Below, in pieces: positions 10,083 through 41,927 of a DNA stretch of 51,506 nucleotides (its first letter is position 1; the number at the start of each line of letters is the position of its first letter). The DNA comes from an uncultured Gammaproteobacteria bacterium (lineage in GTDB: Bacteria > Patescibacteriota > Patescibacteriia > Patescibacteriales > UBA12465): assembly GCA_964539545.1 (NCBI GenBank), contig CAZIJG010000006.1:1-51506 (forward strand). The letters run 5' to 3'. A model generated the notes under the pieces. That model saw nothing but the letters and a program-made list of their open reading frames with translations, did no database searches and was not told the origin of the DNA. Both the position numbers and the translations under genes were made by a program.

Positions 10083-10110
10083 AAAGACCGTTAAATACGG
10101 TCTTTTTTTT
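10083..10110. terminator. Bidirectional intrinsic terminator
   Basis: AAAGACCGT-taaat-ACGGTCTTT plus T-run, between convergent genes. Confidence 0.8.
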
Positions 10111-10113
10111 ATT

Positions 10114-10443
10114 CTAATTTACTTCGCTTATATAAGCGAGTTTACTATCCGGATAAATTAAAACTTTAACTGAAATAGGGAAACGTCTTCCTGATATCTC
10201 AGACTCATTTACTCTTGCTTTCACCAACGTGTCTTTACCATCCAATTTAACTATTACAATAATCTCATTATCAAGTCGGTAGGCGAATACTTTTCTTTCT
10301 ACTATCATTAAACTATCATCTGGAAATATCCTTAAAATATTACCTGTGTATACCTTACTGTCGTCTAGATAATAAAGAAGTATTATAATCCCAAAAACGA
10401 TAGCCAGAAAACCTCTGCTAATAATCTTAAAGAATAATTCCAT
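10114..10443 (-). CDS. Hypothetical membrane-anchored small protein
   Basis: 109 aa with N-terminal TM and beta-rich C-terminus; has its own promoter. Confidence 0.7.
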   Translation of the reverse strand: MELFFKIISRGFLAIVFGIIILLYYLDDSKVYTGNILRIFPDDSLMIVERKVFAYRLDNEIIVIVKLDGKDTLVKARVNESEISGRRFPISVKVLIYPDSKLAYISEVN

Positions 10444-10468
10444 GACAAGTATATTTTTGAAATTAGTA

Positions 10469-10515
10469 TTAAATGAACATTAAATAATCATACTATAAAT
10501 TACTATAGACGTCAA
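10469..10515 (-). promoter_or_regulatory. Sigma70 promoter plus TGTTCATTTAA motif
   Basis: TTGACG-17-TATGAT-7 nt-TGTTCATTTAA. Confidence 0.7.
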
Positions 10516-10551
10516 CCAATTCATTTTTGATATTAATTTAATTTTATATAC

Positions 10552-10582
10552 AAAAAGAGCGACTAATCAGCCGCTCTCTTTA
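10552..10582 (-). terminator. Terminator of rplJ-rplL
   Basis: AGAGCG...CGCTCT stem with a U-tract on the minus strand. Confidence 0.7.
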
Positions 10583-10606
10583 TTTAAACAAACTGTGTAA
10601 ACAAAT

Positions 10607-11065
10607 TTATTTTAGAGTTACTTTACCACCAGCTTCCTCTAGCTGTTTCTTCATTTCTTCAGCTTCTTCTTTCTTAACATTTTCCTTAACAACCTTAGGA
10701 GCTCCGTCTACTAAATCTTTAGCATCCTTTAGGCCCATTTCAGTAAGAGCTCTAACTGCTTTAATAACAGCGATCTTACTAGCACCACCGTCTGTAAGCT
10801 CAACGTCAAAACTATCTTTTTCTTCAACTACAGCACCTTCAACAGCGCCTCCACCAGCCATCATCATTGCTGGAGCAGCAGCAGAAACACCAAATTTCTC
10901 TTCTAAGATTTTAACTAGTTCAGCTAAATCTAAAACACTCATTTGTTCGATTTCAGCTACTAATTTTTCAAACTTGGCTGGAACTACAATTGTTTTAGTT
11001 TCTTCCTTGGTTTCTTCAACAACAGCTTCCGCTGGTTTTTGTTCGTCTTTTTTTTCTTCAGACAT
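10607..11065 (-). CDS. rplL: 50S ribosomal protein L7/L12
   Basis: [20 protein letters not shown] and [13 protein letters not shown]; acidic N-terminal extension. Confidence 0.98.
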
Positions 11066-11096
11066 AAATTTAAATAATTATATACTTATTTATTAA

Positions 11097-11624
11097 TTAA
11101 CTTTTTGCTTCTTTCACAGCGTTTAAAGCGTAAACGAATTTGCGTAAATTGCCAGCGAGAACATTAACGAAGCCGGAGACTGGAGCATTAATAGATCCAA
11201 CCACCTTAGCATAAAGCTCTTGCTTACTAGGTAATTTAGCTAAATTAGCTACTTCACTGCCAGACAAGAATTTATTCTCTAAAATTCCGCCAACAAAATT
11301 AAGCTTGCCTTCACGGCTACTGCCAAAGTCATCTACTGCTTTTGCTGAAGCTACCTCATCATTATATGAGAAAACAGCAGCAATTTTACCTTCAAAGTCT
11401 TTAATCTTTAGTTCATCAATCTTAGTTGATTGAAAAGCTAAATCAAGTAAACTCTTCTTGGCTACATAGTATTCTCCACCTTCAGCCCTCAACTTCTGTC
11501 TCAACTCTTCGTTTTCAGACACAGTTAAAGTATCAAAGTTAGTGAACACAACTGACTTAGAGCGGCTAATTTTGTCCTCGATAATCTTTAAGATTTCTTG
11601 TTTTTGTTGTTTAGTTTTAGCCAT
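11097..11624 (-). CDS. rplJ: 50S ribosomal protein L10
   Basis: LAKLPSKQEL motif, upstream of rplL. Start moved to MAKTKQQK. Confidence 0.97.
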   Translation of the reverse strand: MAKTKQQKQEILKIIEDKISRSKSVVFTNFDTLTVSENEELRQKLRAEGGEYYVAKKSLLDLAFQSTKIDELKIKDFEGKIAAVFSYNDEVASAKAVDDFGSSREGKLNFVGGILENKFLSGSEVANLAKLPSKQELYAKVVGSINAPVSGFVNVLAGNLRKFVYALNAVKEAKS

Positions 11625-11642
11625 AAATAAAAAACTGTGTTT

Positions 11643-11721
11643 TACCACAGCATAATTAAAGAAAACTCAATGAATTCTCTTACCTCGGCAAGTCTGATAA
11701 ATATGCTTGCTGTCTGTGGTA
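11643..11721 (-). ncRNA. L10 leader (autoregulatory RNA)
   Basis: Minus strand has AGACAGCAAG...CTTGCCGAGG kink-turn-like core and closing stem TACCACAG/CTGTGGTA directly upstream of rplJ. Confidence 0.85.
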
Positions 11722-11799
11722 GAACCTTAATATTTAGTTATTAGTATATTAACACATATTGAGATGATGTCAAGATGAGACATTAATAATTAGATAAAA

Positions 11800-11828
11800 T
11801 AAAAGCCACATCTTATAGCGTGGCTTTA
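11800..11828 (-). terminator. Terminator of the RidA gene
   Basis: AAAGCCAC...GTGGCTTT inverted repeat. Confidence 0.75.
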
Positions 11829-11855
11829 AATACTTTTAACTTTGTTAAAATCTAA

Positions 11856-12266
11856 TTAATCTTGCTTCACAGCATCAAACTCAATTTCAACTTGTACATC
11901 AAACGGCAATTCATACACTGAAAAACATTTCCTCCTGGGCATTATTTCTACACCCTCAAAAGCTTCGGCATACGCTTTATTAATTTCTGGATAAGCTCCT
12001 TCTAAGCCATCGCTTGTCAGAATAGTAACACTATACACATCCTTGAAAGATAACCCGCATTTTTTCAGTAACTTCTTCATCCTTGCCATCACCTGTAATG
12101 TTTGATCAAAGATGTCATCAGTTACGGTTTTATTATCTTTATCCAAATCTGGCAATGTACCAGAAAAGTGAAAATGGTTGCCTATTTGTACAACAGGCGA
12201 AAATGGTAATTTGTTCTCAGGGTCAAAAGACACTTTAAACGCTTCTGGAATCTGTTTTTTCGGCAT
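11856..12266 (-). CDS. RidA/YjgF family protein
   Basis: PFSPVVQ, FSGTLP, INKAYAEAF, PRR and VEIE motifs. Confidence 0.88.
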   Translation of the reverse strand: MPKKQIPEAFKVSFDPENKLPFSPVVQIGNHFHFSGTLPDLDKDNKTVTDDIFDQTLQVMARMKKLLKKCGLSFKDVYSVTILTSDGLEGAYPEINKAYAEAFEGVEIMPRRKCFSVYELPFDVQVEIEFDAVKQD

Positions 12267-12290
12267 CGCTTAGGTTTTAAAAATTAAAAT

Positions 12291-12338
12291 AAAAATGAAC
12301 AATTAAAAAAGTATACTATCTTAGTATACTATTGTCAA
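12291..12338 (-). promoter_or_regulatory. Sigma70 promoter with palindromic operator and TGTTCATTT motif
   Basis: TTGACA-17-TATACT-8 nt-TGTTCATTT; AGTATACTA-tct-TAGTATACT palindrome; 30/34 identical to 1312-1345. Confidence 0.78.
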
Positions 12339-12346
12339 TATTTATA

Positions 12347-13102
12347 TTATTTTTTTTCTTCCTGCCCCCTGGACTTAAAATATGTACAATAATCACAATC
12401 TGGATTAGCGGCCGGGATCTCATCTTGGTTCAAACAGGCGTGAGCTTGGGTAATAGCATCTTCTACCCAGCTATCATTTCCAGTATACGGCAATATTTTC
12501 ACATCAAACTCTAATTTACCATCAAAAGTCTCAATATCAGTCTTGCCGTTACAATAGACAAAATAACCTACATCAGATACTTTAAAACCATTTTGACGCA
12601 TTAACCATTGATAGATCTCCATTTGACGTTTATATCCTATTTGCCAGTCAGCATTCAGGTTTACTTCTCCGTTCTTACTAGTAGCCTTATAATCCACCAC
12701 ATACACATCTCCCTGTCCATTGGTCCAAAGATCATCTACAGCTCCGAAGATTTCTAGATTGGTTGGTTCGTGTAAAAATCTAACTCCAGTAAAATTATGG
12801 CGCCATTTATCCATATTCTCATGTTGAAATGGCACTAAATCTAAGCCGTAAGCCTTCATTAGCGGATGAGGATTTTGCAAAATACGATATTTATCAAATT
12901 CTTTCTTTAATAAAGTATCTACAGCCGAATTAAGATTAAAAGGAAAACCTGGCGGTTGTCCCACTCCTAAACGTCTATCTATATAGAAACAACGAGGGCA
13001 ATTCAAAAACAATTCCAACTTAGATCGACTTAAAGCAAAAGATTCCGGGGAAGCTGGGTTATATAGATTACGGGTCCTTTTTCCTTTATAGTATTGACTC
13101 AT
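12347..13102 (-). CDS. PD-(D/E)XK nuclease (Cas4/AddB-like, solo)
   Basis: LSRSKL...CPRCFY, GAVDD, VVDYK, QMEIY and C-terminal CDYC. Confidence 0.88.
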   Translation of the reverse strand: MSQYYKGKRTRNLYNPASPESFALSRSKLELFLNCPRCFYIDRRLGVGQPPGFPFNLNSAVDTLLKKEFDKYRILQNPHPLMKAYGLDLVPFQHENMDKWRHNFTGVRFLHEPTNLEIFGAVDDLWTNGQGDVYVVDYKATSKNGEVNLNADWQIGYKRQMEIYQWLMRQNGFKVSDVGYFVYCNGKTDIETFDGKLEFDVKILPYTGNDSWVEDAITQAHACLNQDEIPAANPDCDYCTYFKSRGQEEKK

Positions 13103-13140
13103 GCCTTTATTATATCAAATAATTGTTATATTATGAAAGT
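13103..13140. promoter_or_regulatory. Back-to-back extended -10 promoters (leaderless or near-leaderless)
   Basis: Minus: TGaTATAAT-6 nt-ATG. Plus: TGtTATATT-8 nt-ATG. Confidence 0.65.
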
Positions 13141-13779
13141 ATGATGGATTTTATTAAAGAAAAAGAATTGCTAAATAAAGGATTTAAATTAATTGCCGGC
13201 ATAGATGAAGCTGGTCGAGGTCCTTTGGCTGGACCGGTGGTAGCCGCTTGCGTAGTCTTTGATCCTGAATTAATTAATAATCCAGAAGGTTTGAAAATAC
13301 TAGAAATGGTTAAAGACTCCAAAAAGATGACTGCCAAACGTCGAGAGGCTGCTTTCCCAATTATTAAAAAGCACGCTTTAGCCGTGGGCATTGGTACTTG
13401 TTCTCATGGTGTAATTGATCAAATAAACATCCTGCAGGCCTCCCTGCTAGCCTGTAAGAAGGCTGTGGAACAATTAGCTCATCAACCTGACTACATCCTA
13501 ATTGATGGTAAATTTTCTATTCCTAAATTTAATATCCGCCAGGAAGCAATAATTGGCGGGGATGATAAAATTTTAAGCATTGCCGCTGCATCAATTATTG
13601 CTAAAGTTACCAGAGACTATTTAATGGCCCAGGCCAATATAGATTACCCTGGCTATGGCTTCGGACAACATAAAGGTTACAGCACTAAATTGCACACAGA
13701 TAAAATAAAAGAGCTTGGCCCCTGTCCTATACACAGAATGAGCTTTGCCCCTTTAAAAAACAAAAAAAATAAATGTTAA
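13141..13779 (+). CDS. rnhB: Ribonuclease HII
   Basis: GIDEAGRGPLAGPV, DSKK, IAAASIIAKVTRD, HKGY and HRMSF. Start moved to ATG 13141. Confidence 0.97.
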   Translation: MMDFIKEKELLNKGFKLIAGIDEAGRGPLAGPVVAACVVFDPELINNPEGLKILEMVKDSKKMTAKRREAAFPIIKKHALAVGIGTCSHGVIDQINILQASLLACKKAVEQLAHQPDYILIDGKFSIPKFNIRQEAIIGGDDKILSIAAASIIAKVTRDYLMAQANIDYPGYGFGQHKGYSTKLHTDKIKELGPCPIHRMSFAPLKNKKNKC

Positions 13780-14840
13780 CTTTTCAATTTTTTCATTAAT
13801 TTCTGATAATACTCTAGATTATTCAAACTAGCGAGTCTTTGTCCCAAAGGCTCTTTTATTTTAAATAAATGATGTAAATAGGAAAAACTACTATTTCTTA
13901 ATACTTCAAAATCACTCTGAGAATTTATTGGCAAAAAACTAGTAGTAAACTTGGCGTTATTAATATTAATGACTTTTGGTTTGGCTATAGAACGACCATT
14001 TAAAAATAATCGGCCATGCCTACCTTCTCTAGTTGGGATTACACAATCAAACATTTCCCAACCCATCCTATGGCAACGAACAATATCTTCCGGAGTACCA
14101 ATACCTAAGGCAAATTTATAATATTTATCAGGAATCATTTGAGCAGTCTCTCGTAATATTTTATCTAAAAAATTGCCATCTTCATCTACTGGTCTAGCTC
14201 CAAAGCCATAACCATCAAAACCAATTTCTAATAAAGCGTCTAAACAATGCTTTCTTAACTTCATATCTTTACCTCCCTGCACCACTCCAAAAAATATTGG
14301 TCTCTCTGTTTCTTTCATTTTTCTTTTTTTCACCTGTCTAAGATATTCATCCTTAGATCGCCTAGCCCAAGCAATCGTACGCTCCACAGACTTTTTCATA
14401 GCTACGTTTGAAATATCATAGGGCGGACAATCGTCTAGCGCCACCATCATATCTGTACCTAAATCAAATTGTATTTGTATAGACTTCTCTGGTGTTAATT
14501 CATGTCTAGAACCATCAATCGGTGATTTAAAAACTACTTTATTATCATATATCTTCCCCATCTTAGAATTATTATAAATTAGCGAAAAGACTTGAAAACC
14601 TCCACTATCTGATAATAGATAACCTGGCCAATCCATAAATTTATGAAGACCACCGGCTTTCTTAATAACTTTTAAGCCTGGTTGCAAATATAGATGCAAA
14701 GTATTCACTACCATGGCTTTAGTGCCAGTCTTTAACACCTCTTCCTTAGTTAAACCCTTCACTAGGGCTCTCGTAGCATCTGGTAGGAAAAAAGGCGCTT
14801 GTAAGCGACCTCTTTTTCTATTTAATGATTTATATTTCAT
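13776..14840 (-). CDS. tgt: tRNA-guanine transglycosylase (Zn ligands absent)
   Basis: NTLHL, DSGGFQVFSL, DDC, VQGG and FDCVIPTR motifs. Confidence 0.95.
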   Translation of the reverse strand: MKYKSLNRKRGRLQAPFFLPDATRALVKGLTKEEVLKTGTKAMVVNTLHLYLQPGLKVIKKAGGLHKFMDWPGYLLSDSGGFQVFSLIYNNSKMGKIYDNKVVFKSPIDGSRHELTPEKSIQIQFDLGTDMMVALDDCPPYDISNVAMKKSVERTIAWARRSKDEYLRQVKKRKMKETERPIFFGVVQGGKDMKLRKHCLDALLEIGFDGYGFGARPVDEDGNFLDKILRETAQMIPDKYYKFALGIGTPEDIVRCHRMGWEMFDCVIPTREGRHGRLFLNGRSIAKPKVININNAKFTTSFLPINSQSDFEVLRNSSFSYLHHLFKIKEPLGQRLASLNNLEYYQKLMKKLKS

Positions 14841-14843
14841 AAT

Positions 14844-16808
14844 TTAAGGTTTCACAATACCATTACTACTTAAATTGGCCACATCATCTTCCTCTAGCTT
14901 CGTAGTAGTAGCTGATGACTTCTTAATAATTTGATCTCTAGTTTGAACATCAGTAGCCTTAATTTCAGCTCCCGAGGAAACAACTAATATTTTATTAGCA
15001 TCTCCAACTTCTGGAGTAATAGTTAAATTAAACTCAGCCAAAACCTCATGCACAGTAACTGGCAAATTATTAATTGTCCAGAGCAAACTATGACTAGAAG
15101 CGCTGTATGATAGATTACCTTGAGTTACCTGAACTTGACCACCCCAATCCATATATTCTGGTAAAGGCATAGAAATTAATAAATCCTCTAAATCATGTAA
15201 ATTATTAGTAATTAACCAAGAAGCTCTAAATTGAGTAGTTTCACCAACTTCCGGAGGCAAGGGACCGCTGCCAACTGGAATGTTCTCTTCCGTAAAGTAT
15301 CTAATTTGTTCGTCTAGATTTAAATCACTATTCAGCTGATTCACTACGGTATTGCTACGATTATCTGATTTATCTTCAAATTCTTCACTATTTTCCATAT
15401 TGAATTGAGCATAGGAGGAAATTTCCATATTTTTACCTAAATCTAATTCATTAAACTCTTTTATTGGTAAAGAAATAACGATACTTCCCTGGCTATCTGG
15501 CTTAATTTCGGCTAGGGCTAGTATCTGCTCCTTAGTCCAAACAATACTATTATTACTATGCACACCGTTCACTGGGTCTATTAACGCAGACCAATCTATA
15601 AAAGGACTATCTATTACCATCATTACCGTCACATCTTCCATAGAAATTTCACCTTTATTATTATATAACAAAGAATAATTTAATGTGTCGCCAAAATTTA
15701 CTGGACCGCCTTTCTTAGATTCATTAATGGCTAAAGTTAAATTTAAATCAGATTTCATAATCTCTAACTCAATTGGCATAGTAAGAAAAACTAAACGCTC
15801 ACCATCTACTAATTGAGAAAAATCTAAATTAATAATTTGTTTATCGGTAACTTTATCGTTAACTTTATATTTAAATTTTAATTCTCTAGCCTCATCTCTA
15901 CCTACTAAACCGCTGACATGCCAAGTATTTCTTTCTTTGGCTACAACTACTAAAGAAGAGGTGGCATTATCTGTTTCTACCGGAGCTAAAAGTTCAATAT
16001 TATCATCTAAATCAAAAACTAAATCAAAACTATTCACAAAATTACTATCTTGATCTTGAAACATTAAAGTCATTTCTTGTTCTTCACCAACTAGAGCAGT
16101 TCCTAGATAGTCAGCCCTCAAATCAAAACCAATATTTTTTATAATCACTGTAGAATTATCCTCTGATCTAAATTGGCTAGAAAAATTGCTTGGAATATAG
16201 GAGACTTTAGCGACTAGAGTATTAGGCAAACCTGCTTTATTTATAATTTTACCTTTAATAGTTATTTTACCACTAGATTCTTGTTCTAAATCTGGCAAAC
16301 TCCAGGCAGATTGTCCTCGAGTTGGAATAATTGAACTATCTAAGAAAATAAAGTTTTCTGGGTAAACCATTTCTAACTCAATTTCTCCTAAGCTAACATC
16401 TCCTGGGTTTTTATAATTAACTGTAAATAAGAATTCTTCACCCGTAGAAACAGTATCTGGACTAATAATTTCTAATTCCAAAGTCATAGACTGAGAACTA
16501 GGACTAGAAACATAATAAACAGCAACATATCCAGCAACCGCCAATATACCTAAAATCACAATGATTTTAAACAGCTTACGCCAAAAACCTTTTTTCTTTT
16601 TAATTTTTAACTTACTCACATCAATTAAATTTCCTTTCTTATCTTTATATATAGCAGACAAATTTTCCTCTATCTCATCTTCTCTGTGCTGGCTTTTCAC
16701 AGAAGCCTCAAAACCCCTAACCTCTTCATCAGTGGCTAATGGTCGTTTCACGAATTCCGATAAACCAGAATTCTTCTTATTTTTGACGTGAATAGTTTTT
16801 TTAGTCAT
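14844..16808 (-). CDS. Membrane-anchored protein with Ig-like/DUF11-like repeats
   Basis: Single TM near residue 80-100 followed by beta-rich repeats (YKNPG, YNNKG) and GSGPLPPEVG. Confidence 0.7.
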   Translation of the reverse strand: MTKKTIHVKNKKNSGLSEFVKRPLATDEEVRGFEASVKSQHREDEIEENLSAIYKDKKGNLIDVSKLKIKKKKGFWRKLFKIIVILGILAVAGYVAVYYVSSPSSQSMTLELEIISPDTVSTGEEFLFTVNYKNPGDVSLGEIELEMVYPENFIFLDSSIIPTRGQSAWSLPDLEQESSGKITIKGKIINKAGLPNTLVAKVSYIPSNFSSQFRSEDNSTVIIKNIGFDLRADYLGTALVGEEQEMTLMFQDQDSNFVNSFDLVFDLDDNIELLAPVETDNATSSLVVVAKERNTWHVSGLVGRDEARELKFKYKVNDKVTDKQIINLDFSQLVDGERLVFLTMPIELEIMKSDLNLTLAINESKKGGPVNFGDTLNYSLLYNNKGEISMEDVTVMMVIDSPFIDWSALIDPVNGVHSNNSIVWTKEQILALAEIKPDSQGSIVISLPIKEFNELDLGKNMEISSYAQFNMENSEEFEDKSDNRSNTVVNQLNSDLNLDEQIRYFTEENIPVGSGPLPPEVGETTQFRASWLITNNLHDLEDLLISMPLPEYMDWGGQVQVTQGNLSYSASSHSLLWTINNLPVTVHEVLAEFNLTITPEVGDANKILVVSSGAEIKATDVQTRDQIIKKSSATTTKLEEDDVANLSSNGIVKP

Positions 16809-16817
16809 ATTTTAAAA

Positions 16818-21337: not shown

Positions 21338-21339
21338 AA

Positions 21340-31971: not shown

Positions 31972-31980
31972 ACTTGATTT

Positions 31981-32045
31981 TCACCTTAATTCACCACTAA
32001 TCACCTATATAATATTATTATACACCACTTATACCCTACCGTCAA
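31981..32045 (-). promoter_or_regulatory. mraZ promoter with 10-bp-periodic GGTG repeats (MraZ boxes)
   Basis: TTGACG-17-TATAAT; TCACC on + at 31981, 31991 and 32001, plus CACC at 32023. Confidence 0.8.
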
Positions 32046-32139: not shown

Positions 32140-32142
32140 AAT

Positions 32143-32170
32143 AAAAAAACATCCTAAAAAAAATAGGACG
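32143..32170 (-). terminator. Probable terminator after tsaB
   Basis: Minus RNA CGUCCUA...UAGGAUG followed by a U-run. Confidence 0.55.
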
Positions 32171-32280
32171 CTAATAACCATTGATCAGAAAAAAAAGTCG
32201 TTCATTAAATCAAATATTAATCAGCAATGCTCTCCTTTCATATATTAAAGATTGATTAAAAATCTATTATAACAGAAAAA

Positions 32281-32655
32281 TTATATATCAATTTTACTAG
32301 GACCAATATCTGGCTCTCGATCATATAGGGGTTTAACTATTTTAATATCCTGTCTATTTAACGATTGGTCATCTAAACCTTTGACAGGCAAACCTAATAT
32401 AAAGGCTAAAGTATTAGCAGTTAACACTCCTAATCTTAAACCAGTAAAACTACCGCCTACATTATTTACTTCTAAATCAGTTATTCTCCCCCAGGTCAAA
32501 CCATTATCTTTTAAAAACTTATCCATAACGATCAGCAACTTTTCTGCTTGTCGCTTATTCACTACGGCTTCTTCATGTCTAAATAATTCTTTCTGATTTT
32601 TCTTCAAAACCAAAATAATCTTTTTAGGATTGGTTGTATCTATGTATAGAGTCAT
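32281..32655 (-). CDS. tsaB: TsaB-like protein (short, N-domain only)
   Basis: LYIDT, AEKLL and GSFTGLRLGV motifs; only 124 aa. Confidence 0.85.
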   Translation of the reverse strand: MTLYIDTTNPKKIILVLKKNQKELFRHEEAVVNKRQAEKLLIVMDKFLKDNGLTWGRITDLEVNNVGGSFTGLRLGVLTANTLAFILGLPVKGLDDQSLNRQDIKIVKPLYDREPDIGPSKIDI

Positions 32656-33583: not shown

Positions 33584-33585
33584 AA

Positions 33586-34971
33586 TTAACTTCTTAAAAT
33601 TCTAGTTCCCTCTGACGAATCCGCTACTTTATATCCTAAACCTTCTATTTTCACTCTAAGATCATCTGCTCTAGAAAAATCTTTTACTTGTCTAGCTTCA
33701 TCCCTGGTCTTAGCTAAGGTTAACACTGGCTGAGGAGCTTGCCAAGATAACTGTTCTTTAAAATTTAAAGCTAACACTCTATCAAAGTCTAAAGCGGTAG
33801 CTACTCTGTCCTCGGTTTTAATAGTATTGTCCTTTAGCATCTGCTGAGTTATAGCTAAAGCTTGAGGCATATTTAAATCATCGTTTATTGCTGTAATAAA
33901 CCTTTGTCTATATTTCTGGTTAATCTTACCTACTTTCTCCCCCAGCTCTTCTAGACGCCCATACAGGGACTTCAGAGCCTGGTCAGCGTTCAGAATAGTC
34001 TCAGCGCTATATTCCATTGGCTTATGATAATGAACTTGCAAAGCGGCTAATCTAAAAGCTAATGGGCTAATCTTTCTATCTAGTAATTCAGATTTTAAAG
34101 TTAAAAAATTTCCTTCGCTCTTAGCCATTTTCTTGCCTCCGGAAATTATTAAAAAAGCTCCATGTAACCAATAATTGAAAAATTTTCTTCCAGTAGCTGC
34201 TTCCGACTGAGCAATCTCATTCGTATGATGAACATTAATATGATCAACACCACCACAATGTATATCCAATTGTTTACCTAGACCTTTCAAGCTCATAGCG
34301 CTACATTCAGTATGCCAACCAGGAAAGCCAATCCCCCAGGGAGATTTCCATTCCATCTGTCTCTGTTCATTTTCAGGAGAAAACTTCCAAAGGGCAAAAT
34401 CTGCCAAGTTACGCTTTTCATCATTTTTCTCTACTCTAGCCCCCTCTTGTAGAGACTTAAGATCTTGATGGCTTAATTTAGTATAACCACCAAACTTAAC
34501 TGTATTGAAATATATACCATCTGAAGTTTTATAGGTATACCCTTTCTTTTCTAAAGTTTTAATTAATTTAATTTGCTCTCTTATTGTTTCCGTAGCCTTA
34601 TACCATTTACTTGGTGCTAAAATATTTAAATTTTCTAAATCTTTTTTAAAAGCTGCTAAATAAAAATTGGCAATTTCCCAAGCAGTTTTATTTTCTCTCT
34701 TAGCCCCTAGCTCCAACTTGTCTTCCCCCATATCTCTATCTCCAGTTAGATGTCCTACATCTGTAATGTTCATAATATGTTTAACTTTATAATCATTGAA
34801 CAATAAAACACGTTTTAAAAAGTCTTCAAACAAATATGTACGTAAATTACCTAAGTGAGCATAGTTATATACTGTAGGACCACAAGTGTACAAGCCAATC
34901 TGACCTTTCTTGATTGGTTTAAACTCTTCTTTCTCTCGACTGAGAGTATTGTATAAAAAAATTGTGCTCAT
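33586..34971 (-). CDS. cysS: Cysteine-tRNA ligase
   Basis: YTCGPTVY, HLGN, DFALWK, PGWHTECSAM and KMAKS motifs. Confidence 0.98.
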   Translation of the reverse strand: MSTIFLYNTLSREKEEFKPIKKGQIGLYTCGPTVYNYAHLGNLRTYLFEDFLKRVLLFNDYKVKHIMNITDVGHLTGDRDMGEDKLELGAKRENKTAWEIANFYLAAFKKDLENLNILAPSKWYKATETIREQIKLIKTLEKKGYTYKTSDGIYFNTVKFGGYTKLSHQDLKSLQEGARVEKNDEKRNLADFALWKFSPENEQRQMEWKSPWGIGFPGWHTECSAMSLKGLGKQLDIHCGGVDHINVHHTNEIAQSEAATGRKFFNYWLHGAFLIISGGKKMAKSEGNFLTLKSELLDRKISPLAFRLAALQVHYHKPMEYSAETILNADQALKSLYGRLEELGEKVGKINQKYRQRFITAINDDLNMPQALAITQQMLKDNTIKTEDRVATALDFDRVLALNFKEQLSWQAPQPVLTLAKTRDEARQVKDFSRADDLRVKIEGLGYKVADSSEGTRILRS

Positions 34972-35783
34972 AAAATTAATCTTTTCATTTCCATTAATGA
35001 TTCTTGGAATCTATTTAAATTATCCTGTAGAGCCGAATTGACAGACTCGGGTAATAAATCTTCTCGCTGATTTTCTAAAGAATCAACAAACTTATTCATA
35101 ATGCTCTGTTCTGATTCAGATAAATCATCCTTATCCTTATCCAATGACACCAGCAACGACTGTAATTCTTGCTTACTTAGAGAAAGATAGAAAGCTGGTA
35201 AATTATTCAACGATTTAACACCTAATTCATTCTCCTGATTAAATCCTAAGCCATACTTCAAGCTAGCCCCACCCCTGGCCATTATCTTCTTTATTTTATC
35301 CGACTTCTTCTCCGCTCCATCATCTCCCTCATGGCCAATTACTTCATCAAAACCGCAAATTACTGCTCCAGTTTCTTTGTCTACAATAACATTATCTACG
35401 CCATTTCTATAATCATCATAATTAGAAGCTCTGACCACAACAAAACGAGAACCAATCGCTTTATCCAATAACACAGTTACTGCCATCTCTGTAATATTTG
35501 CAGCATTTTTCTCTTTTTTACTCTTCCATTCGCCTACACTTTCATGCATTTGTTCTGCCCAAATTTTTTCCTGTTTTTCCACCCAACGACTATCCTCAAC
35601 TGCGTCTTGCCCAGAAATACCAATAATGCCATCCTCGGCTACAAAATCACCGTATTCCTCGTTTAATCTTAACGACAAACCAGCCAATTTCTTATCTAAA
35701 TTTGGTTTATATGTTTCTGGTTTTGGGTCTTTTTTATATTTATCAAATTGAGTTAAATCAATTTGATCTAAGATTTTTATCAT
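34968..35783 (-). CDS. Hypothetical protein (possible PD-(D/E)XK-like fold)
   Basis: 271 aa; E...DDYRNGVD...GFD acidic motifs; ATGA overlap with cysS. Confidence 0.7.
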   Translation of the reverse strand: MIKILDQIDLTQFDKYKKDPKPETYKPNLDKKLAGLSLRLNEEYGDFVAEDGIIGISGQDAVEDSRWVEKQEKIWAEQMHESVGEWKSKKEKNAANITEMAVTVLLDKAIGSRFVVVRASNYDDYRNGVDNVIVDKETGAVICGFDEVIGHEGDDGAEKKSDKIKKIMARGGASLKYGLGFNQENELGVKSLNNLPAFYLSLSKQELQSLLVSLDKDKDDLSESEQSIMNKFVDSLENQREDLLPESVNSALQDNLNRFQESLMEMKRLIL

Positions 35784-35820
35784 ATATTAAATTTTAGCAT
35801 GCACCCTTTAAAAAGCAAAG

Positions 35821-35847
35821 AAAAAAGATCGTAAAAATACGATCTTT
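35821..35847 (-). terminator. Intrinsic terminator
   Basis: AAAGATCGTA-aaaa-TACGATCTTT. Confidence 0.75.
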
Positions 35848-35856
35848 ATAGTCTGC

Positions 35857-36060
35857 TCACGCAGCCGAATAACCAAAAACTGAAATCAGGCAGGACCCTA
35901 AAATATGTGCAAAAATACATATGGCAGATCCTCCTATGGCTATGGGTAAAATAACTGGCAACACAAATATCGCCTGTCCTTTAACCAAATCTTTACCCCA
36001 AAACATGTTTAAGTCTTGCGCCAGGTAACTAGAATGTTCAGAAAAATTTTGATGTGCCAT
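35857..36060 (-). CDS. Small hydrophobic hypothetical protein
   Basis: 67 aa with hydrophobic C-half; flanked by promoter TTGACT-17-TATATT (36115-36087) and a terminator. Confidence 0.55.
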   Translation of the reverse strand: MAHQNFSEHSSYLAQDLNMFWGKDLVKGQAIFVLPVILPIAIGGSAICIFAHILGSCLISVFGYSAA

Positions 36061-36133
36061 GATATCTAATTTTAAAACAACTATGTAATATAATATAAAA
36101 ATCTAAAAAAGTCAATGTTTACAAATAATGTCG

Positions 36134-37408
36134 CTATAGTTTGAGTTCAGTTTCTTCACCACTAGACATATCCTTTATTTTATATATCTCCTGTTCTTTT
36201 TCTTGGCCAGCAAATATTACAACTTTATTGAATCCTTTACGGTTAGCATATTCTAAAGCTTTATTTAATTTTTGCGCTTCTAATCCAGCTTCCACAGAAA
36301 GTCCATTCCCTCTCAATTTACCAGACAATTTTTTATACTCCAAAGTTAAACTCTCATCCAATAATGGTAAATAGTATCTTTCGGTCTTTTTTATTTTATC
36401 TAAGAGGCCCCAACTCTCTAAAAAAAGTTTAGTAGTTTCATCTCCGGGAGCAAAACCTACGGCCGGAAAACTAGTTTTACCAAAAATTTCAGCCAAACCA
36501 TTATACCTACCTCCGCCAAACATAGCCCGAAGATTATCTGGGTGTTTATCAAAAATTTCAAAAACTATACCATCATAATAATCAAATCCTCTGATCAAGT
36601 CAGCTTTAAAATTAACATATTCTCCATAACCCAACTCTCTCAGCGTAACTGTTGCTTCTACAATTTCTTTAAATCCTTCACTATCCTTCAACTTAGGAAT
36701 AGCCTCACCTAATTCTACCTCAGTTTTACTCTTCATGAACTTTTCTAATAAAACAAAACTGTCTCTAGAAACTTCAATCTCTGCAAAGGCTGACTCTAAG
36801 TCTTTAGGGTCTAGCTTATTCCATTTATCCATCAACCTAATAGTATCTAATTTTCTGTCGTCAGCTATACCGGATAAGGCTAGCAAATCATTGATTAACT
36901 TACGATTATTAATATACAAACAAAAAGAATCTTTAGGAGGATTAAAAGCTAACATAATATCCAGGGCAATCTGCATTACTTCAATATCTGCGGCTAATGA
37001 ATCGGTGCCAAAAGTGTCGCAATTAAGTTGCCAAAATTCACGATTTCTTCCTCTCTGAGGTTTTTCATTTCTAATAAAATTGGCGATTGAGAATAACTTC
37101 AATGGTTTAGGAGCTTGATCATAAATACGAGTAACTAATCTAGTCACACTAGGAGTCATTTCTGGGCGAAGAGCGAATTCTCTACCAGCTCTATCTGTGA
37201 TTGTCATCAACTCTTTACCTCCCACTTCATCACCTGATTTAGCTCGATAAAGCTCAGCACTTTCAAAAACTGGGGTTAAATATTGCTCAAAACCATAGAG
37301 TTCACAAACTCTTTTCCAAGTATCAAAAATATATTGCCTAACATTAAATTCGTCAGGCAACCAATCACTAGTGCCCTTAGGCGGTTGGTTGGAAATTATT
37401 TTTATCAT
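36134..37408 (-). CDS. hisS: Histidine-tRNA ligase
   Basis: PKGTSD, LRPEMT, RNEKPQRGRNREF, RGFDYYDG and GGGRY. Start moved to MIKII. Confidence 0.97.
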   Translation of the reverse strand: MIKIISNQPPKGTSDWLPDEFNVRQYIFDTWKRVCELYGFEQYLTPVFESAELYRAKSGDEVGGKELMTITDRAGREFALRPEMTPSVTRLVTRIYDQAPKPLKLFSIANFIRNEKPQRGRNREFWQLNCDTFGTDSLAADIEVMQIALDIMLAFNPPKDSFCLYINNRKLINDLLALSGIADDRKLDTIRLMDKWNKLDPKDLESAFAEIEVSRDSFVLLEKFMKSKTEVELGEAIPKLKDSEGFKEIVEATVTLRELGYGEYVNFKADLIRGFDYYDGIVFEIFDKHPDNLRAMFGGGRYNGLAEIFGKTSFPAVGFAPGDETTKLFLESWGLLDKIKKTERYYLPLLDESLTLEYKKLSGKLRGNGLSVEAGLEAQKLNKALEYANRKGFNKVVIFAGQEKEQEIYKIKDMSSGEETELKL

Positions 37409-37504
37409 AATAGTTATTAGTATAGCGCTAAAATTATTTTTTTTCAATAAAAAAACCCCATTTCTAAGAACAGGGTATATTTTACACTTTTTTCAAATTT
37501 CATC

Positions 37505-38353
37505 TTACATTCCCCATGGTAAATCATCATATAACTGATGAAAATTACGTATTGAAATTCTTTCTTTACCGTCAGCACTTATTGCTGATATCACCTCTGT
37601 TCCTGCCGGAAGATCTATAGCTACCAGATAACCATGAGAAAATTTTTCCCAAACCATATCAAACGAGCAACGTTTCCAGGTGACATCTTTGTACATTACT
37701 GGGATATTATTATCTTCAGCAAATAACAACCAACCAAGAAGATCAGGGATAATGTGACAAGGATAATGATATTCATCAATAACACCAATTACTGTAATCT
37801 TCAATTCTTTTACTAAAACTGGCCTAACTGCAACCTTAGCTTTTCTTATAGGATCTTGTAATTCTACATAACCATTGATACATCTAAGAAAAAAACTGTG
37901 GAACGGTAAATTTGTACTTAAATCTGGAGTGTATCCTTCTTTAAATATATGAACTACCGGTTCCGTGCCATAGGTCATGGATCTATGCCATTTCCCTTGG
38001 GTATCCATTACTTTAACACCGCCTTCATCAAACTGAAGAAATTCATATACCATCGTACAGTTGGGAAGTAAACATTCCCGCCCCATAATACTTAATTGAA
38101 TATTAGCATAACGACGCACTTGTTGATCAAGATCTTTTTTAGTGATTTTTAACCTGTCAAATAGCAGTATAGACTCACTGGTGTCCTGACGAATGCTATC
38201 AAAAACAGCCTCTTGGTCTGCTGACCATTCATTGCAGGTTCTTTCCATACCTAAAGTGGCGTCTGTTTTTCCGCTTCTACTGGACAAATAAATGATTCCG
38301 AAAATTAAGAATGCGACAAGCGCAATTACCGAATACAAAAGAATTTTTTTCAT
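37505..38353 (-). CDS. Hypothetical membrane-anchored or secreted protein
   Basis: MKKILLY signal/TM; promoter TTGACA-18-TATGAT at 38431-38402; hairpin near 37450-37482. Confidence 0.7.
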   Translation of the reverse strand: MKKILLYSVIALVAFLIFGIIYLSSRSGKTDATLGMERTCNEWSADQEAVFDSIRQDTSESILLFDRLKITKKDLDQQVRRYANIQLSIMGRECLLPNCTMVYEFLQFDEGGVKVMDTQGKWHRSMTYGTEPVVHIFKEGYTPDLSTNLPFHSFFLRCINGYVELQDPIRKAKVAVRPVLVKELKITVIGVIDEYHYPCHIIPDLLGWLLFAEDNNIPVMYKDVTWKRCSFDMVWEKFSHGYLVAIDLPAGTEVISAISADGKERISIRNFHQLYDDLPWGM

Positions 38354-38439
38354 TGGAAATAATTTTAAGTGAAATTTAATTTTAAAAAACAATATTGAAA
38401 TATCATACTATAAAAGATTTATTTTTGTCAACAATAATG

Positions 38440-38461
38440 TTAATCTTTTTTTAATCTTTTC
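38440..38461 (+). repeat. 11-bp tandem repeat upstream of the response regulator
   Basis: TTAATCTTTTT followed by TTAATCTTTTC. Confidence 0.45.
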
Positions 38462-38524
38462 TTTAGGTTTAATTAACTAGGAAAAAGTTAAAATTAAACT
38501 AAATTTATAATTAATGCTTAAACT

Positions 38525-39199
38525 ATGAAAATCTTAATTATCGAAGACGATAAAGAAATCTTAAAATTTCTTAAAAGTGGTTTAGAATCTGAATTCTTTA
38601 TAATTGATACTGCTACCGACGGAGAACAGGGTTCTTTTACGGCCAGAACTAACCCCTACGATGTAATTATTTTAGATTTCATGTTACCTAAACTAAACGG
38701 ATTAGAAGTCTGCACAGAAATCCGCGAAGACAAAATTGATACCCCTATTATTATGCTATCTGTAAAAAACGATTTTAAGACTAAAAATGAAATGTTCAAA
38801 GCAGGAATAGATGATTATTTAACTAAACCATTTGTTTTTGAAGAATTATTAATGCGACTAAAAGCCATAGGCAAACGACCACCTATTAGACTGCCCGACT
38901 TACTAATGTTGGATGATCTTAAATTAAACACCGACAGCCAAGAAGTTTCTCGGGGTAAACAAAAAATATATTTAACTCGTAAAGAATACTGCTTATTAAA
39001 ATATTTTTTGCAAAATAATAATAGAGTTTTATCTCGTGGTTTAATTTTAGAAAATGTCTGGGACATTAATGCTGATCCTTTTTCTAATACCATTGAATCT
39101 CATGTTTTGAATTTAAGAAGGAAAATAGAAAAACCGGGAAAACGAAAGTTAATTCATACTCTTCCCGGCCGTGGTTATAAGATGGCGCTTAATCAATAA
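38525..39199 (+). CDS. OmpR/PhoB-family response regulator (orphan)
   Basis: IIEDD, LDFMLP, DDYLTKPF and wHTH LRRKI...GRGY. Confidence 0.95.
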   Translation: MKILIIEDDKEILKFLKSGLESEFFIIDTATDGEQGSFTARTNPYDVIILDFMLPKLNGLEVCTEIREDKIDTPIIMLSVKNDFKTKNEMFKAGIDDYLTKPFVFEELLMRLKAIGKRPPIRLPDLLMLDDLKLNTDSQEVSRGKQKIYLTRKEYCLLKYFLQNNNRVLSRGLILENVWDINADPFSNTIESHVLNLRRKIEKPGKRKLIHTLPGRGYKMALNQ

Positions 39200-40370
39200 A
39201 CTTTTTATTCTTTAATTTATCTGGTAAATAATCTTGATCACTACTATCTTCTAGGGGAGTATATTTATATCCTTTACTATACCCTAAATCTTTCATTAAA
39301 CTAGTTGGGGCATTTCTAATATGTAATGGTACCGGTAAATTACCACTCTTTTCTACCTCTTCCTTCACTTTACTATAAGCCAGATATGCTTGAACACTTT
39401 TTTTAGATTTAGCTAAATAGATCACTGCGTGAGCTAAATGCACTTTGCATTCTGGCAGACCAATCTTTTGACAAGCTTCAAAAGCAGCATTAGCTAATAA
39501 CAAAGCTGTGTTATTGGCTAAACCAATATCTTCACTAGCAAATCGAACTAATCTTCTAGCTACATAGATAGGATCTTCTCCGCCCTCTAATAATCTAGCT
39601 AACCAATAGAGAGAAGCATCGGGATCATTACCACGCATTGACTTATGCAAGGCAGAAATTAAATTATAGTGCTCTTCTCCGCTCTTATCATGAAATACAT
39701 GTGGCCGGTTCAAAACTTCTTTAACTAAATCAATATTAATAACCTCCGAACGACTGCGCGCTTTCTCTAAAATATTTAAAGCCTGACGAGCGTCACCATT
39801 AGCTAACCTAACTATTAATGACAGCGCTTTGGCTTCAACTTTAGCAGCTAATTTCTTAGCTGCTTTTTTAATAATAGATTTCAAATCTAATTCACTCAAC
39901 CTCTCTAATACCACCACTTGTGCTCTAGACAATAACGCTGAGTTAATTTCAAAACTAGGATTTTCTGTAGTAGCTCCAATTAAAATAATAACCCCATTTT
40001 CTACTTGGGGTAATAGAGCGTCTTGCTGGGCTTTGTTCCAACGATGAATCTCATCGATAAACAAAATAGTTTTTTGGCCTAATCTCTGAATAGCTTGAGC
40101 TCCTTCGACCACTTGTCGCAAATCCTTAAGACCACTATTAACTGCGCTCAATTGCACAAATTTAGCTTTAGTCTCTGAGGCAATGATTAAAGCTAGGGTG
40201 GTTTTACCGCTACCTGGTGGGCCCCAAAGAATCATTGACGGTACCTGATCAGATTTAATAGCCTGAAATAAAAAACCGTCTTTACCAACTACTTTTTCTT
40301 GGCCAACAAATTCCTTAAAACTTTTAGGACGCAATCGGCTAGATAAAGGTTGGAAATATTGTTCAGTCAT
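39189..40370 (-). CDS. rarA: Replication-associated recombination protein A
   Basis: WGPPGSGKTT, DEIHR, ATTENPSF, ISALHKSMRG and VPLHIRNAPT motifs. Confidence 0.97.
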   Translation of the reverse strand: MTEQYFQPLSSRLRPKSFKEFVGQEKVVGKDGFLFQAIKSDQVPSMILWGPPGSGKTTLALIIASETKAKFVQLSAVNSGLKDLRQVVEGAQAIQRLGQKTILFIDEIHRWNKAQQDALLPQVENGVIILIGATTENPSFEINSALLSRAQVVVLERLSELDLKSIIKKAAKKLAAKVEAKALSLIVRLANGDARQALNILEKARSRSEVINIDLVKEVLNRPHVFHDKSGEEHYNLISALHKSMRGNDPDASLYWLARLLEGGEDPIYVARRLVRFASEDIGLANNTALLLANAAFEACQKIGLPECKVHLAHAVIYLAKSKKSVQAYLAYSKVKEEVEKSGNLPVPLHIRNAPTSLMKDLGYSKGYKYTPLEDSSDQDYLPDKLKNKKFID

Positions 40371-41176
40371 TATGGTAAATTTATATGTTCTACTTTAGAA
40401 ATTTTACGACCTAAGAATCTCTCGCCCATTACTTTAAAATTACTCGCTTTATCAGTAGTGTAAAATTTGATAATAGATTTTTTCTTAGTAGCTAACTTAA
40501 TTTCTAGATGACGACCTAAATAATCTTTTAAACTAGCGGAAACTACGTGTCCCGGATCATAAACCAAACAACTCTTGCCCATAATCCTTCTAATCTCTTT
40601 CAATAAAAATGGATAGTGAGTACAAGCCAAAATCAGGGCCTTTACCTGCTTCATTTTTAATGATCTTAAATATTTCTTTAAAATCATTTTAGTTTCCGGT
40701 TTTCCTAACCAATTTTCTTCAATCAAAGACACTAATAACGGAGTAGCTTTCTCTATAACCTGAATCTTAGAATTTAACTTTTTTATTTCTTTTTTGTACA
40801 CTCCTGAAGAAATAGTGGCAGCAGTACCAATTACTCCTATCTTAGAAAAATTATCTTGAACTGCTTGCTCAGCCAGGGGCCTAATAACGCCTAAAATTTT
40901 CTTACCAGGATATTTTTTTGGCAAATCTTCCGTCTGAATTTTTCTCAAAGCCTGACTAGAAGCGCTATTGCAAGCGAAAATAATAAGTTCACATCCCTGA
41001 GAAAACAAAAAATCCACTGCTTGAACGCTGTATTGATAAATTAAATCAGGAGATTTGCTGCCGTAGGGAACACGGGCATTATCACCTAAATAAATGTAAT
41101 CATATTGGGGCAAATCATTTAAAAAATGCTTTAGGATAGTTAATCCTCCCAAACCTGAATCAAAAACTCCTATCAT
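40370..41176 (-). CDS. murI: Glutamate racemase
   Basis: FDSGLGG, PYG, ACNSAS and LACTHYP motifs. Confidence 0.97.
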   Translation of the reverse strand: MIGVFDSGLGGLTILKHFLNDLPQYDYIYLGDNARVPYGSKSPDLIYQYSVQAVDFLFSQGCELIIFACNSASSQALRKIQTEDLPKKYPGKKILGVIRPLAEQAVQDNFSKIGVIGTAATISSGVYKKEIKKLNSKIQVIEKATPLLVSLIEENWLGKPETKMILKKYLRSLKMKQVKALILACTHYPFLLKEIRRIMGKSCLVYDPGHVVSASLKDYLGRHLEIKLATKKKSIIKFYTTDKASNFKVMGERFLGRKISKVEHINLP

Positions 41177-41178
41177 AA

Positions 41179-41463
41179 TTAATTGCTAAAAACTTGTAAT
41201 AATTGACGACAGTATTCATATTGATCAAAATCACCACTCTGTTGGCTAACTAAGTCACCGCAGCGAGTTGTTTCTTGCTCCAAGATTTCTAGTTGCTGAA
41301 TATTAGCTGCTATAGCTTGCTGTTTCTGTGATTGGTTAGAAAATAATGACCAACCAACAAGAATAAGAATAACAATAATAATAGTTTCGATTAAAATAAA
41401 CTTAGATTTCACAGATTTTTTCTTCTGTGGCTCTAAATCATTGTTGTTTAGAATATTATCCAT
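41179..41463 (-). CDS. Small membrane-anchored hypothetical protein
   Basis: 94 aa; one TM and a helical periplasmic part with two Cys. Confidence 0.7.
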   Translation of the reverse strand: MDNILNNNDLEPQKKKSVKSKFILIETIIIVILILVGWSLFSNQSQKQQAIAANIQQLEILEQETTRCGDLVSQQSGDFDQYEYCRQLLQVFSN

Positions 41464-41514
41464 ATTTTTGTTTAATTATAAGCTCTTTTAATATTATATC
41501 GACAAAGCCAGTAA

Positions 41515-41562
41515 TTGACAAGAAACATTTTTAAAGATATATTAATCTATTGTTCATTTAAA
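41515..41562 (+). promoter_or_regulatory. Sigma70 promoter plus TGTTCATTTAAA motif
   Basis: TTGACA-17-TATATT-7 nt-TGTTCATTTAAA. Confidence 0.7.
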
Positions 41563-41571
41563 TCAGCAAAC

Positions 41572-41886
41572 ATGAAATTAGGAAAACGATCATCGCCATG
41601 TGCGGAAATTGCAGTAACAAGAATACTGAAAAAGAATTTTGAAAAAAGTTCTTTAATATTGATGCATTACATTTTTGTAATGCTTACTCAACTTTTAAAA
41701 GCTGAAAAGTATATTTTATTGATAAAAGGTGATGATATATTTCTAAGAATATATGTCACATCAGAAATAACTATCGATAGCTGCTTCGTCAAAGCAAAAG
41801 ACATAGATGTAACAATTGTTTATCTAATTACAGAATCGATCTTTGCTAATGACGACATAGAAAAAATTATTAACAGAGATTGTTAA
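41572..41886 (+). CDS. Hypothetical protein
   Basis: 104 aa from ATG 41572 (the track's TTG start is the -35 box); has its own terminator. Confidence 0.6.
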   Translation: MKLGKRSSPCAEIAVTRILKKNFEKSSLILMHYIFVMLTQLLKAEKYILLIKGDDIFLRIYVTSEITIDSCFVKAKDIDVTIVYLITESIFANDDIEKIINRDC

Positions 41887-41898
41887 TATCAAAATAGT

Positions 41899-41927
41899 AA
41901 AAACCTTGAACTAATCAAGGTTTTTTT
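41899..41927. terminator. Bidirectional terminator
   Basis: AAAAACCTTGA-actaa-TCAAGGTTTTT. Confidence 0.8.

Follow-up and report, generated by a model that had tools for sequence, protein, structure and literature searches.

The 51,506-nt window considered here is the entire contig C6 (CAZIJG010000006.1) of a 765-kb genome (assembly GCA_964539545.1; 34 contigs, 94% complete, 33% G+C) from an uncultured bacterium of the Patescibacteriota (UBA12465), whose gene content is typical of Patescibacteria, with DUF4012 proteins, numerous glycosyltransferases, and mraZ/mraW/PBP/Mur genes. Between the housekeeping operons of this contig lie stand-alone genes that bring their own promoter, a short leader, and a terminator, and an initial annotation had singled out five of them as a family sharing a boxA-like motif downstream of the promoter (modules 1 to 5 in Table 1). 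When leaders are read throughout the genome, a motif of this kind is real, strand-specific, and conserved, and the sequence comparisons described below suggest that it is probably the boxA of this lineage, placed on mostly orphan or accessory single-gene units and linking their expression to Nus factors.

The modules and their surroundings

The promoter and motif strings quoted in the initial annotation were all found in place. The five promoters score 10 to 11 out of 12, and each module ends, as had been claimed, in a terminator-like hairpin followed by a T-run. The motif itself is less uniform than was proposed, since three of the five modules have a core containing a C that is invariant in rRNA leaders, whereas the modules at 35857 and 37505 carry C-less, poor matches and their membership appears doubtful from their sequences. 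The open reading frame (ORF) at 334..1269 (module 6) fits the layout, as had been noted, and its core also contains the C. The leader motif takes the forms GUUCAUUUAA and GAACCUUAAA in this organism, the latter being that of ORF 334..1269.

The rplJ and mraZ promoters had been put forward as lacking the motif, and neither carries it; the rplJ leader corresponds to the L10 leader RNA of Rfam. The mraZ promoter region contains four spaced GTGGTG/AGGTGA-type repeats around and after the −10 box, which we take to be MraZ sites, as expected for MraZ self-repression.

Table 1. Modules, contrast loci, hairpin promoters, and repeat copies (positions refer to the window unless another contig is named; strand in brackets)
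Feature	Location	Promoter	Leader motif	Gene or other content	Terminator
Module 1	10083..10515 (-)	TTGACG 10515-10510, TATGAT 10492-10487	boxA-type TGTTCATTTAA 10479-10469	109-aa orphan membrane-like ORF 10443-10114	two-way, 10105-10083
Module 2	11802..12338 (-)	TTGACA 12338-12333, TATACT 12315-12310	boxA-type TTGTTCATTTTT 12302-12291	RidA gene 12266-11856	11827-11802
Module 3	35824..36115 (-)	TTGACT 36115-36110, TATATT 36092-36087	degenerate, C-less TTGTTTTAAAA 36080-36070	67-aa orphan membrane-like ORF 36060-35857	35847-35824
Module 4	37455..38431 (-)	TTGACA 38431-38426, TATGAT 38407-38402	degenerate, C-less TTGTTTTTTAAAA 38392-38380	282-aa orphan ORF 38353-37505	37476-37455
Module 5	41515..41925 (+)	TTGACA 41515-41520, TATATT 41538-41543	boxA-type TGTTCATTTAA 41551-41561	104-aa ORF 41572-41886, no Pfam family	two-way, 41899-41925
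Module 6	284..1345 (-)	hairpin promoter: TTGACA 1345-1340, AAAAGTATACC/GGTATACTTTT hairpin, TATACT 1322-1317 (17-nt spacer), T-run	boxA-type GAACCTTAAA 1289-1280 (-)	311-aa ORF 1269-334, no Pfam family	about 310-284
Contrast locus rplJ	11617..11773 (-)	rplJ promoter	without boxA	L10 leader RNA (Rfam)	
Contrast locus mraZ	31972..32045 (-)	mraZ promoter	without boxA	leader, repeated GTGGTG-type boxes	
Hairpin-promoter sites	window 1306-1345, 12299-12338; C4 60277-68480; C2 50260-51114				
Further hairpin-promoter sites	C1 1447-1486; C10 1157-1196; C11 28188-28227				
Copies of the 196-nt repeat	window 50..245 (-); C4 55240-68420; C7 15673-15848				

A strand-specific motif in short leaders

Genes were called crudely, taking the longest ORFs first (791 genes, 90% of the genome covered), and promoters were sought as TTGACA with at most one mismatch, a spacer of 16–18 nt, and TAnnnT with at most two mismatches, which yielded 659 matches in the genome, 237 of them intergenic. 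Keeping one promoter per gene, at 5–120 nt upstream, gave 128 leaders with a total of 5,365 nt, and the counts expected in upstream regions were obtained by first-order Markov simulation.

An unseeded ranking of the 7-mers in these 128 leaders places GTTCATT in nine of them, against 0.3 expected and none in antisense; the other top words are TGTTCAT, ATTGTTC, GTTCTTT (five leaders, 0.4 expected, none antisense), and GATCTTT (four leaders, 0.3 expected, none antisense), and the top motif words rank level with the Shine–Dalgarno word GGAGG(T). The pattern GWWCHTT, derived from rRNA leaders alone, occurs in sense in 22 of the 128 leaders and in antisense in 4, the Markov mean being 3.4 and the maximum over 300 simulations 9. 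The extended pattern GWWCHTTNAA is found 14 times in sense and once in antisense, with 0.6 expected, and the reversed-motif control gives 3 and 1. Among 406 upstream regions, G[TCA]TC[AT]TT-N0-3-AAA has 19 sense and 8 antisense matches (3.1 expected), and the C-less variant of the 35857 and 37505 type is rare (3 sense, 0 antisense, 0.3 expected). Genome-wide, the motif is thus commoner in leaders than the Markov, antisense, and reversed controls predict, and the genome-wide count that the initial annotation had called for came out in its favor.

Several other searches gave no such signal. Within the window alone, the 11-mer stays at chance level (6 matches with at most one mismatch, 4.4 expected), and with the broadened pattern [GA][ATC][AT]C[ATC]T[TA]..AAA the strand bias is gone (51 sense vs. 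52 antisense). Unconstrained expectation-maximization under a zero-or-one-occurrence-per-sequence (ZOOPS) model converged, in the 406 upstream regions, on GC-rich terminator stems, and promoter and T-run words dominate the contrast of sense and antisense 7-mers across whole upstream regions. The tRNA leaders do not carry the motif, with 4 loose matches in 35.

The position of the motif was read in 21 leaders, where its G lies 6–33 nt 3' of the −10 box. The fixed spacing of 7–10 nt proposed initially describes a subset of these; in 7 of the 21 the distance is 6–9 nt, so that the motif would start at the predicted transcript start or a few bases off. In the same leaders, the distance from the motif to the called ATG is 19–43 nt, with one case of 7, and the leader measured from the −10 box to the ATG is 24–57 nt long. 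The AU-rich leader without a clear Shine–Dalgarno sequence, which had also been listed as a shared trait, is present but does not define a class, because the words GGAG, GAGG, or AGGA at −20 to −4 are scarce genome-wide (just 54 of 666 genes); Shine–Dalgarno use does not separate the motif genes from the others either (4/24 vs. 7/104, p 0.22).

Correspondence with the boxA of rRNA leaders

The 16S gene of this organism is unassembled, and the comparison with its own rRNA was made on the 23S gene, which has a separate promoter and a leader containing GAACTTTAACAAT. In addition, the 260 nt upstream of the 16S gene were read in 15 relatives, which here means members of its family or order from different genera. 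In 14 of these leaders an element stands at the boxA position, between a hairpin with a T-run and the conserved GATGCTAATNGGCATC processing stem, and one leader is unclear. The element reads GTTCATTAAAAAA, GTTCATTATAATA, GATCATTAAAAAA, GAACCTTAAAAAA, GAACTTTAACAAT, GAACTTTGACAAT, GAACATTGAAAAC, GTTCTTTAAATC, GTTCTTTACATT, GTTCTTTATATAA, or a near form. The variants in the mRNA leaders are identical to these rRNA-leader variants, of the type GWWCHTT(R)A(M)AA, and all boxA-like rRNA-leader sequences read, those before the 16S gene of 14 relatives and the 23S one of this genome, contain the C. The comparison with rrn boxA suggested in the initial annotation has thus given a match both to the own 23S leader and to the 16S leaders of 14 of the 15 relatives.

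The GAACTTTAACAATTT form has CTTTAACAATTT in common with the rrn boxA of E. coli. Copies of GTTCTTTAAA fit the E. coli-derived consensus GYTCTTTAANA, with the 8-nt core UGCUCUUU; relative to that core, the commonest form, GTTCATT, is off at one position and GAACCTT at three. NusB/NusE contact an 8-nt core in the published crystal structure (PMC3177189), and the conserved G, C, and UU of the motif match its positions 2, 5, 7, and 8. The C at core position 5 is the base that is absent from the modules at 35857 and 37505.

The proteins expected to read such a signal are encoded, namely NusB (PF01029, C2 3975-4355) and S10 (PF00338, C4 16045-16329), together with NusG, NusA, and a SuhB-like inositol monophosphatase. 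The RNA-binding domain of Rho was not found in the 31 genomes of the order (this one and 30 relatives) by a search that detected it in control genomes. As for boxB, the only hairpin in the mRNA units is the promoter itself, 5' of the predicted start, and in the rRNA leaders of the relatives a hairpin with a T-run precedes boxA; no boxC was seen in the mRNA units, for which no systematic search was made.

Some boxA-like words occur outside of gene leaders. Between rpsJ (S10) and the next gene (C4 16460-16517), GTTCATTGAAA occupies a hairpin loop (CTGG..CCAG) followed by a T-run, and this word in a terminator or attenuator beside the S10 gene could reflect autoregulation or chance. Two strong promoters, at C8 22291-22334 (+) and C17 5475-5531, have GTTCTTTAAA directly behind them and no ORF thereafter. 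The first is flanked by two tRNA genes on the minus strand, the second reaches the contig end, and they could belong to a small RNA or to the 16S operon that the assembly lacks.

Genes that carry the motif

Gene classes were compared over 123 leaders, the 5 on small contigs being left out of the 128, and 24 of the 123 match G[ATC]WCHTT. With a Pfam cut-off of E ≤ 1e-5, no Pfam family is assigned to 17 of the 24 motif genes, against 30 of the 99 others (Fisher odds ratio 5.6, p 0.0004), or to 16 motif genes if a Pribosyltran match at 2.2e-5 is accepted. This contrast is conservative, because the negative set retains several near-motif or mis-started genes. Moreover, the motif is on none of the scanned promoter-bearing translation genes (L10, L19, L21, L27, L32, S12, S16, IF1, IF2, and IF3), and the contrast between ORFans and core genes anticipated in the initial annotation is borne out in both respects. 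The 109-aa and 282-aa proteins of the window gave self-matches only among 5.8 billion clusters, in a word-based search restricted to a length band, each protein being present on 2 contigs.

Insertion of modules and conservation of leaders

Comparison of gene order in relatives, also proposed at the outset, indicates that three of the five modules (10114, 35857, and 37505) are extra units inside conserved neighborhoods. On the 3' side of rplL, 24 of 26 relatives run from the terminator straight into a convergent gene with homology to the C-terminal portion of window 7817-10063; here, a promoter, boxA, the orphan ORF (10114), and a second terminator lie between rplL and the convergent gene. The 5' neighbor of hisS was compared in 14 relatives, with one truncated locus and two paralogues of 32% identity set aside; in 10 of them hisS directly adjoins a divergently oriented response-regulator gene with 42–71% identity to window 38525-39199. 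Here, the 282-aa orphan module (37505) sits between the two genes. The site of the 67-aa ORF (35857), between hisS and a 271-aa gene, has no ORF in one relative (G014) and a different 55-aa ORF in another (G002). No repeats are visible at the breakpoints of the three inserted modules. As a separate observation, this very small genome has two HisRS-like genes, one in the window (36134-37447) and one on C4 (38789-40189), the latter with boxA-like GTACATTAAA in its leader.

Where orthologous leaders were compared, the motif tends to persist. RidA was found in 3 of the 31 genomes, and in both other copies GTTCTTTCTTAAT or GATCCTTTAACAAT comes after a promoter; the boxA-like motif is kept in all three RidA leaders, the own one included, and the flanks differ. 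For a lyase-like gene on C2, the leaders of 3 of 4 genomes, again counting the own one, retain a boxA-like word and are otherwise divergent. On a broader scale, the composite TTGACA-N16-18-TANNNT-N4-34-GWWCHTTNAA has 191 matches in the 31 genomes, 18 of them here and at least one in 30 of the 31, and the motif-reversed composite has 3. Of 150 further genomes of the phylum, 70 contain the composite, with 152 matches in all; the reversed-pattern control has 9, and a few lineages of that sample reach 6–9 matches. These counts indicate that the promoter plus boxA leader is present at a low level throughout the phylum and expanded in this family.

Hairpin promoters and the link to mobile DNA

About 14 promoters in the genome read TTGACAAAAGYATAC-loop-GGTATRCTTTTTTGATA, including that of ORF 334..1269 and, more weakly, that of RidA, in which a AGTATACT..AGTATACT hairpin is formed by the spacer and the −10 box. 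In this design, spacer and −10 box pair up, the −10 box forming the 3' arm, and a T-run follows. Folding gives −7 to −17 kcal/mol for 26 of 32 instances and weak values of −0.2 to −5.3 for the other 6, the median of the 128 promoters being −1.75. Covariation was counted from per-sequence folds of 46 unique instances, taken from several genomes including this one, and the left arm matches the changes of the −10 hexamer, with 39 A-U and 3 G-C pairs at position 3, 30 U-A, 6 C-G, and 7 U-G pairs at position 4, and 33 G-C, 6 A-U, and 2 G-U pairs at position 5. Since G-U pairs function on the sense strand only, the pattern points to an RNA hairpin that ends upstream transcripts.

The leader after the hairpin promoter, GATAGTTAAAATT..ATTGTYGAACYTTWAA, is conserved across genera and has boxA at its end. 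In relatives, the TTGACA of the hairpin promoter directly adjoins the tRNA-Gln 3' end or is 2 nt away from tRNA-Ser on its 3' side, and in public records the hairpin promoter is found 3' of tRNA-Gln or tRNA-Asn 3' ends or fragments, the records with a related promoter being titled Candidatus Falkowbacteria or Patescibacteria group. At C10 635-1196, an IS200-like Y1 transposase gene lies under a two-way hairpin promoter, in which both strands read TTGACA/TAACAA..TATACT.

Contig C4 has a tRNA-Asn gene followed by genes for a tyrosine integrase, an excisionase-like HTH_17 protein, and a RepSA-like Rep (C4 49473-51663). The next 19 kb contain eight matches, seven of them about full length, to an att-like repeat of about 196 nt with TTGTGAC iterons, whose end equals the last 21 nt of tRNA-Asn. 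The copies are separated by one to three accessory genes, several of which stand under a hairpin promoter with boxA, and the C4 copies of the hairpin-promoter unit have flanks about 90% identical. Rfam finds nothing under the repeat or across C4 58.8-72.5 kb, and, since ARAGORN reports zero tRNA genes in that interval, the tRNA-like pieces there are fragments. The repeat has 11 matches in the genome and diverged or partial ones only in relatives, and the copy in the window lies just past ORF 334..1269, at the contig end.

Read as sequence, the C4 array fits a tandem accretion of integrated cassettes, and these features together suggest that integrative elements may have been one means of spread for hairpin-promoter boxA modules. 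The cassette-like acquisition suggested initially finds some basis in the subclass of C4 and ORF 334..1269; three of the five modules are inserted in conserved gene pairs, but no att-like repeat was seen at any of the five.

Proposed mechanism and alternative explanations

In the explanation that we consider likely, the motif would act as boxA does on rRNA leaders, as a single-stranded RNA site bound by NusB and S10 (NusE), and about one in six transcription units with a promoter would have it in a short leader. These units would be self-contained, with a strong sigma-70-type promoter, a boxA leader, an ORF, and a terminator, and would represent lineage-specific insertions between conserved genes; about half of their products appear to have signal-peptide-like or membrane-like N-termini, which is a trend only. 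The nascent boxA would recruit NusB/S10 to RNA polymerase, followed by NusA, NusG, and the SuhB-like protein, and this recruitment would tie the expression of boxA genes to the Nus machinery of rRNA synthesis. In the hairpin-promoter subclass, the hairpin and U-run would additionally end upstream transcripts. The effect would not be classical Rho protection, because the search of the 31 genomes turned up no Rho and there would be nothing of Rho type to antiterminate. It might consist of faster, pause-resistant, ribosome-independent elongation, as on rRNA, or ribosomes might be kept away from the nearby start codon, as at E. coli suhB; the latter is slightly preferred, and the sequence does not tell the two models apart.

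A number of observations weigh against this explanation. The boxA identity stands insofar as the same variants occur in the rRNA leaders of the lineage, but core positions 3, 4, and 6 are not those of GYTCTTTAANA, the consensus in E. coli. At position 6, where A occurs here, a transversion weakens binding in E. coli (PMC3177189). GTTC and GAAC forms coexist within genomes, with no genome-by-genome co-variation with the rRNA boxA, and two of the five modules (35857 and 37505) fall outside the rRNA-derived pattern through the loss of the invariant C. No boxA is found 5' of nusB or of the suhB-like gene, both of which are inside operons. Outside of the family, there is about one composite match per genome, some of them necessarily rRNA leaders. 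A strongly hydrophobic segment, often N-terminal and signal-like, is predicted in 11 of the 24 motif genes and 28 of the 104 others, which is a trend only (p 0.09), and the five named modules have no adjoining att-like repeat or integrase, ORF 334..1269 alone having the repeat. Promoters and gene starts, moreover, rest on crude in-house calls.

It seems unlikely that the motif is instead the site of some other factor controlling a regulon of accessory genes, be it a protein that binds RNA, a small RNA, or a regulator that binds DNA just 3' of the promoter, and that its likeness to boxA arose by AT-rich convergence. The three deviating core positions would suit such a factor, as would the frequent overlap of the motif with the predicted transcript start (the 7 of 21 leaders mentioned above) and the many copies ending in TAAAAT, a −10-like word that could pause sigma-bound polymerase. 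However, identical variants occupy the boxA position of the relatives' rRNA leaders, and a motif that is non-palindromic, strand-specific (GTTCATT never in antisense), and floating over 6–33 nt suits an RNA signal more than an operator. An improbable reading, too, is that of a functionless passenger on promoter–leader cassettes copied by mobile elements or promoter duplication, with boxA inherited, for example, from an rRNA or phage-type leader. This reading draws on the hairpin-promoter subclass, a highly similar unit repeated across genera beside tRNA fragments, and on the C4 copies of that unit with their flanks of about 90% identity. Most boxA leaders (10114, 41572, and those on C1, C5, C11, C12, and C13) nevertheless have only the promoter hexamers and the motif in common, the motif is retained in orthologous leaders in which other bases have diverged, and its enrichment holds across 31 genomes of different genera.

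We give very little credence to chance, by which AT-rich leaders would yield T-rich and then A-rich words and five of them would have been picked by eye. The count of the 11-mer in the window, the even strand distribution of the broad pattern, and the two loose matches among the five modules speak for it, but it is rejected for the GTTCATT-type core by de novo k-mers, Markov simulations, and antisense and reversed controls; chance stays open solely for the modules at 35857 and 37505. With the lineage boxA retained as the preferred reading, a wider picture can be offered tentatively. In this apparently Rho-less branch, the Nus complex might have a second task on mRNAs, with dozens of newly inserted orphan genes, often surface-directed, forming a boxA regulon that is driven by consensus promoters, gated by NusB/S10, and thereby coupled to ribosome synthesis. 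Promoter, terminator hairpin, and boxA would make up a portable cassette carried by tRNA-integrating elements, supplying incoming genes with control already tuned to the host.

Relation to known systems

The leaders resemble those of the rrn boxA antitermination complex (NusB, NusE/S10, NusA, NusG, SuhB, and S4) in having the same variants in the sense orientation after a strong promoter, and the listed genes that were searched, all but S4, are encoded here; unlike rrn boxA, the motif stands on short mRNA leaders of single protein-coding genes. Phage nut sites (lambda boxA-boxB) are similar in that mobile or newly arrived genes bring their own promoter and the boxA of the host, whereas here no N-like protein or boxB was seen, and single genes, each with a terminator, take the place of a long operon. 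The C4 elements are like tRNA-integrating elements of the pSAM2 type in their integrase, excisionase-like HTH_17, and RepSA-like Rep beside tRNA-Asn and in the repeats with a 3' fragment of tRNA-Asn, and unlike them in the repeat of about 200 nt with 11 matches and in most cassettes having only one to three small genes.

The initial annotation had suggested an undescribed expression class, which does not hold as such, boxA on mRNAs being already described by Baniulyte et al. 2017 (PMC5725501). In that study, GYTCTTTAANA was sought within 50 nt of the start codon in 940 gamma-proteobacterial genomes, giving 0–7 sites per genome of several Mb, with about one quarter of the functions tied to translation, the Nus genes themselves as frequent targets, and few targets expected per species. 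For E. coli suhB, the same study describes a mainly translational repression by Nus factors that is independent of the distance from boxA to the Shine–Dalgarno sequence (PMC5725501). The present leaders share with suhB a boxA about 50 nt or less from the start codon. They differ from the sites described there in their number, which is much larger for the genome size (22–24 of 128 leaders in a 0.77-Mb genome, with a looser pattern), in standing mostly on orphan or accessory genes and on none of the scanned translation genes, nusB, or the suhB-like gene, and in a background where Rho was not found. It is this dense use on orphan single-gene modules that differs from the published case, and literature searches found no paper on boxA leaders in Patescibacteria or the Candidate Phyla Radiation.

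Significance

The usual view of Nus factors is that they specialize in rRNA and have no more than a handful of mRNA targets in any genome, and in this organism the signal is on fast-turnover lineage-specific genes, not on translation genes. The promoter that is also a terminator hairpin is a compact design and may help annotators. Confirmation of binding would make boxA a major signal of gene regulation in ultra-small bacteria, whose transcription factors are few, and would provide a sequence-only handle on their accessory and surface gene sets.

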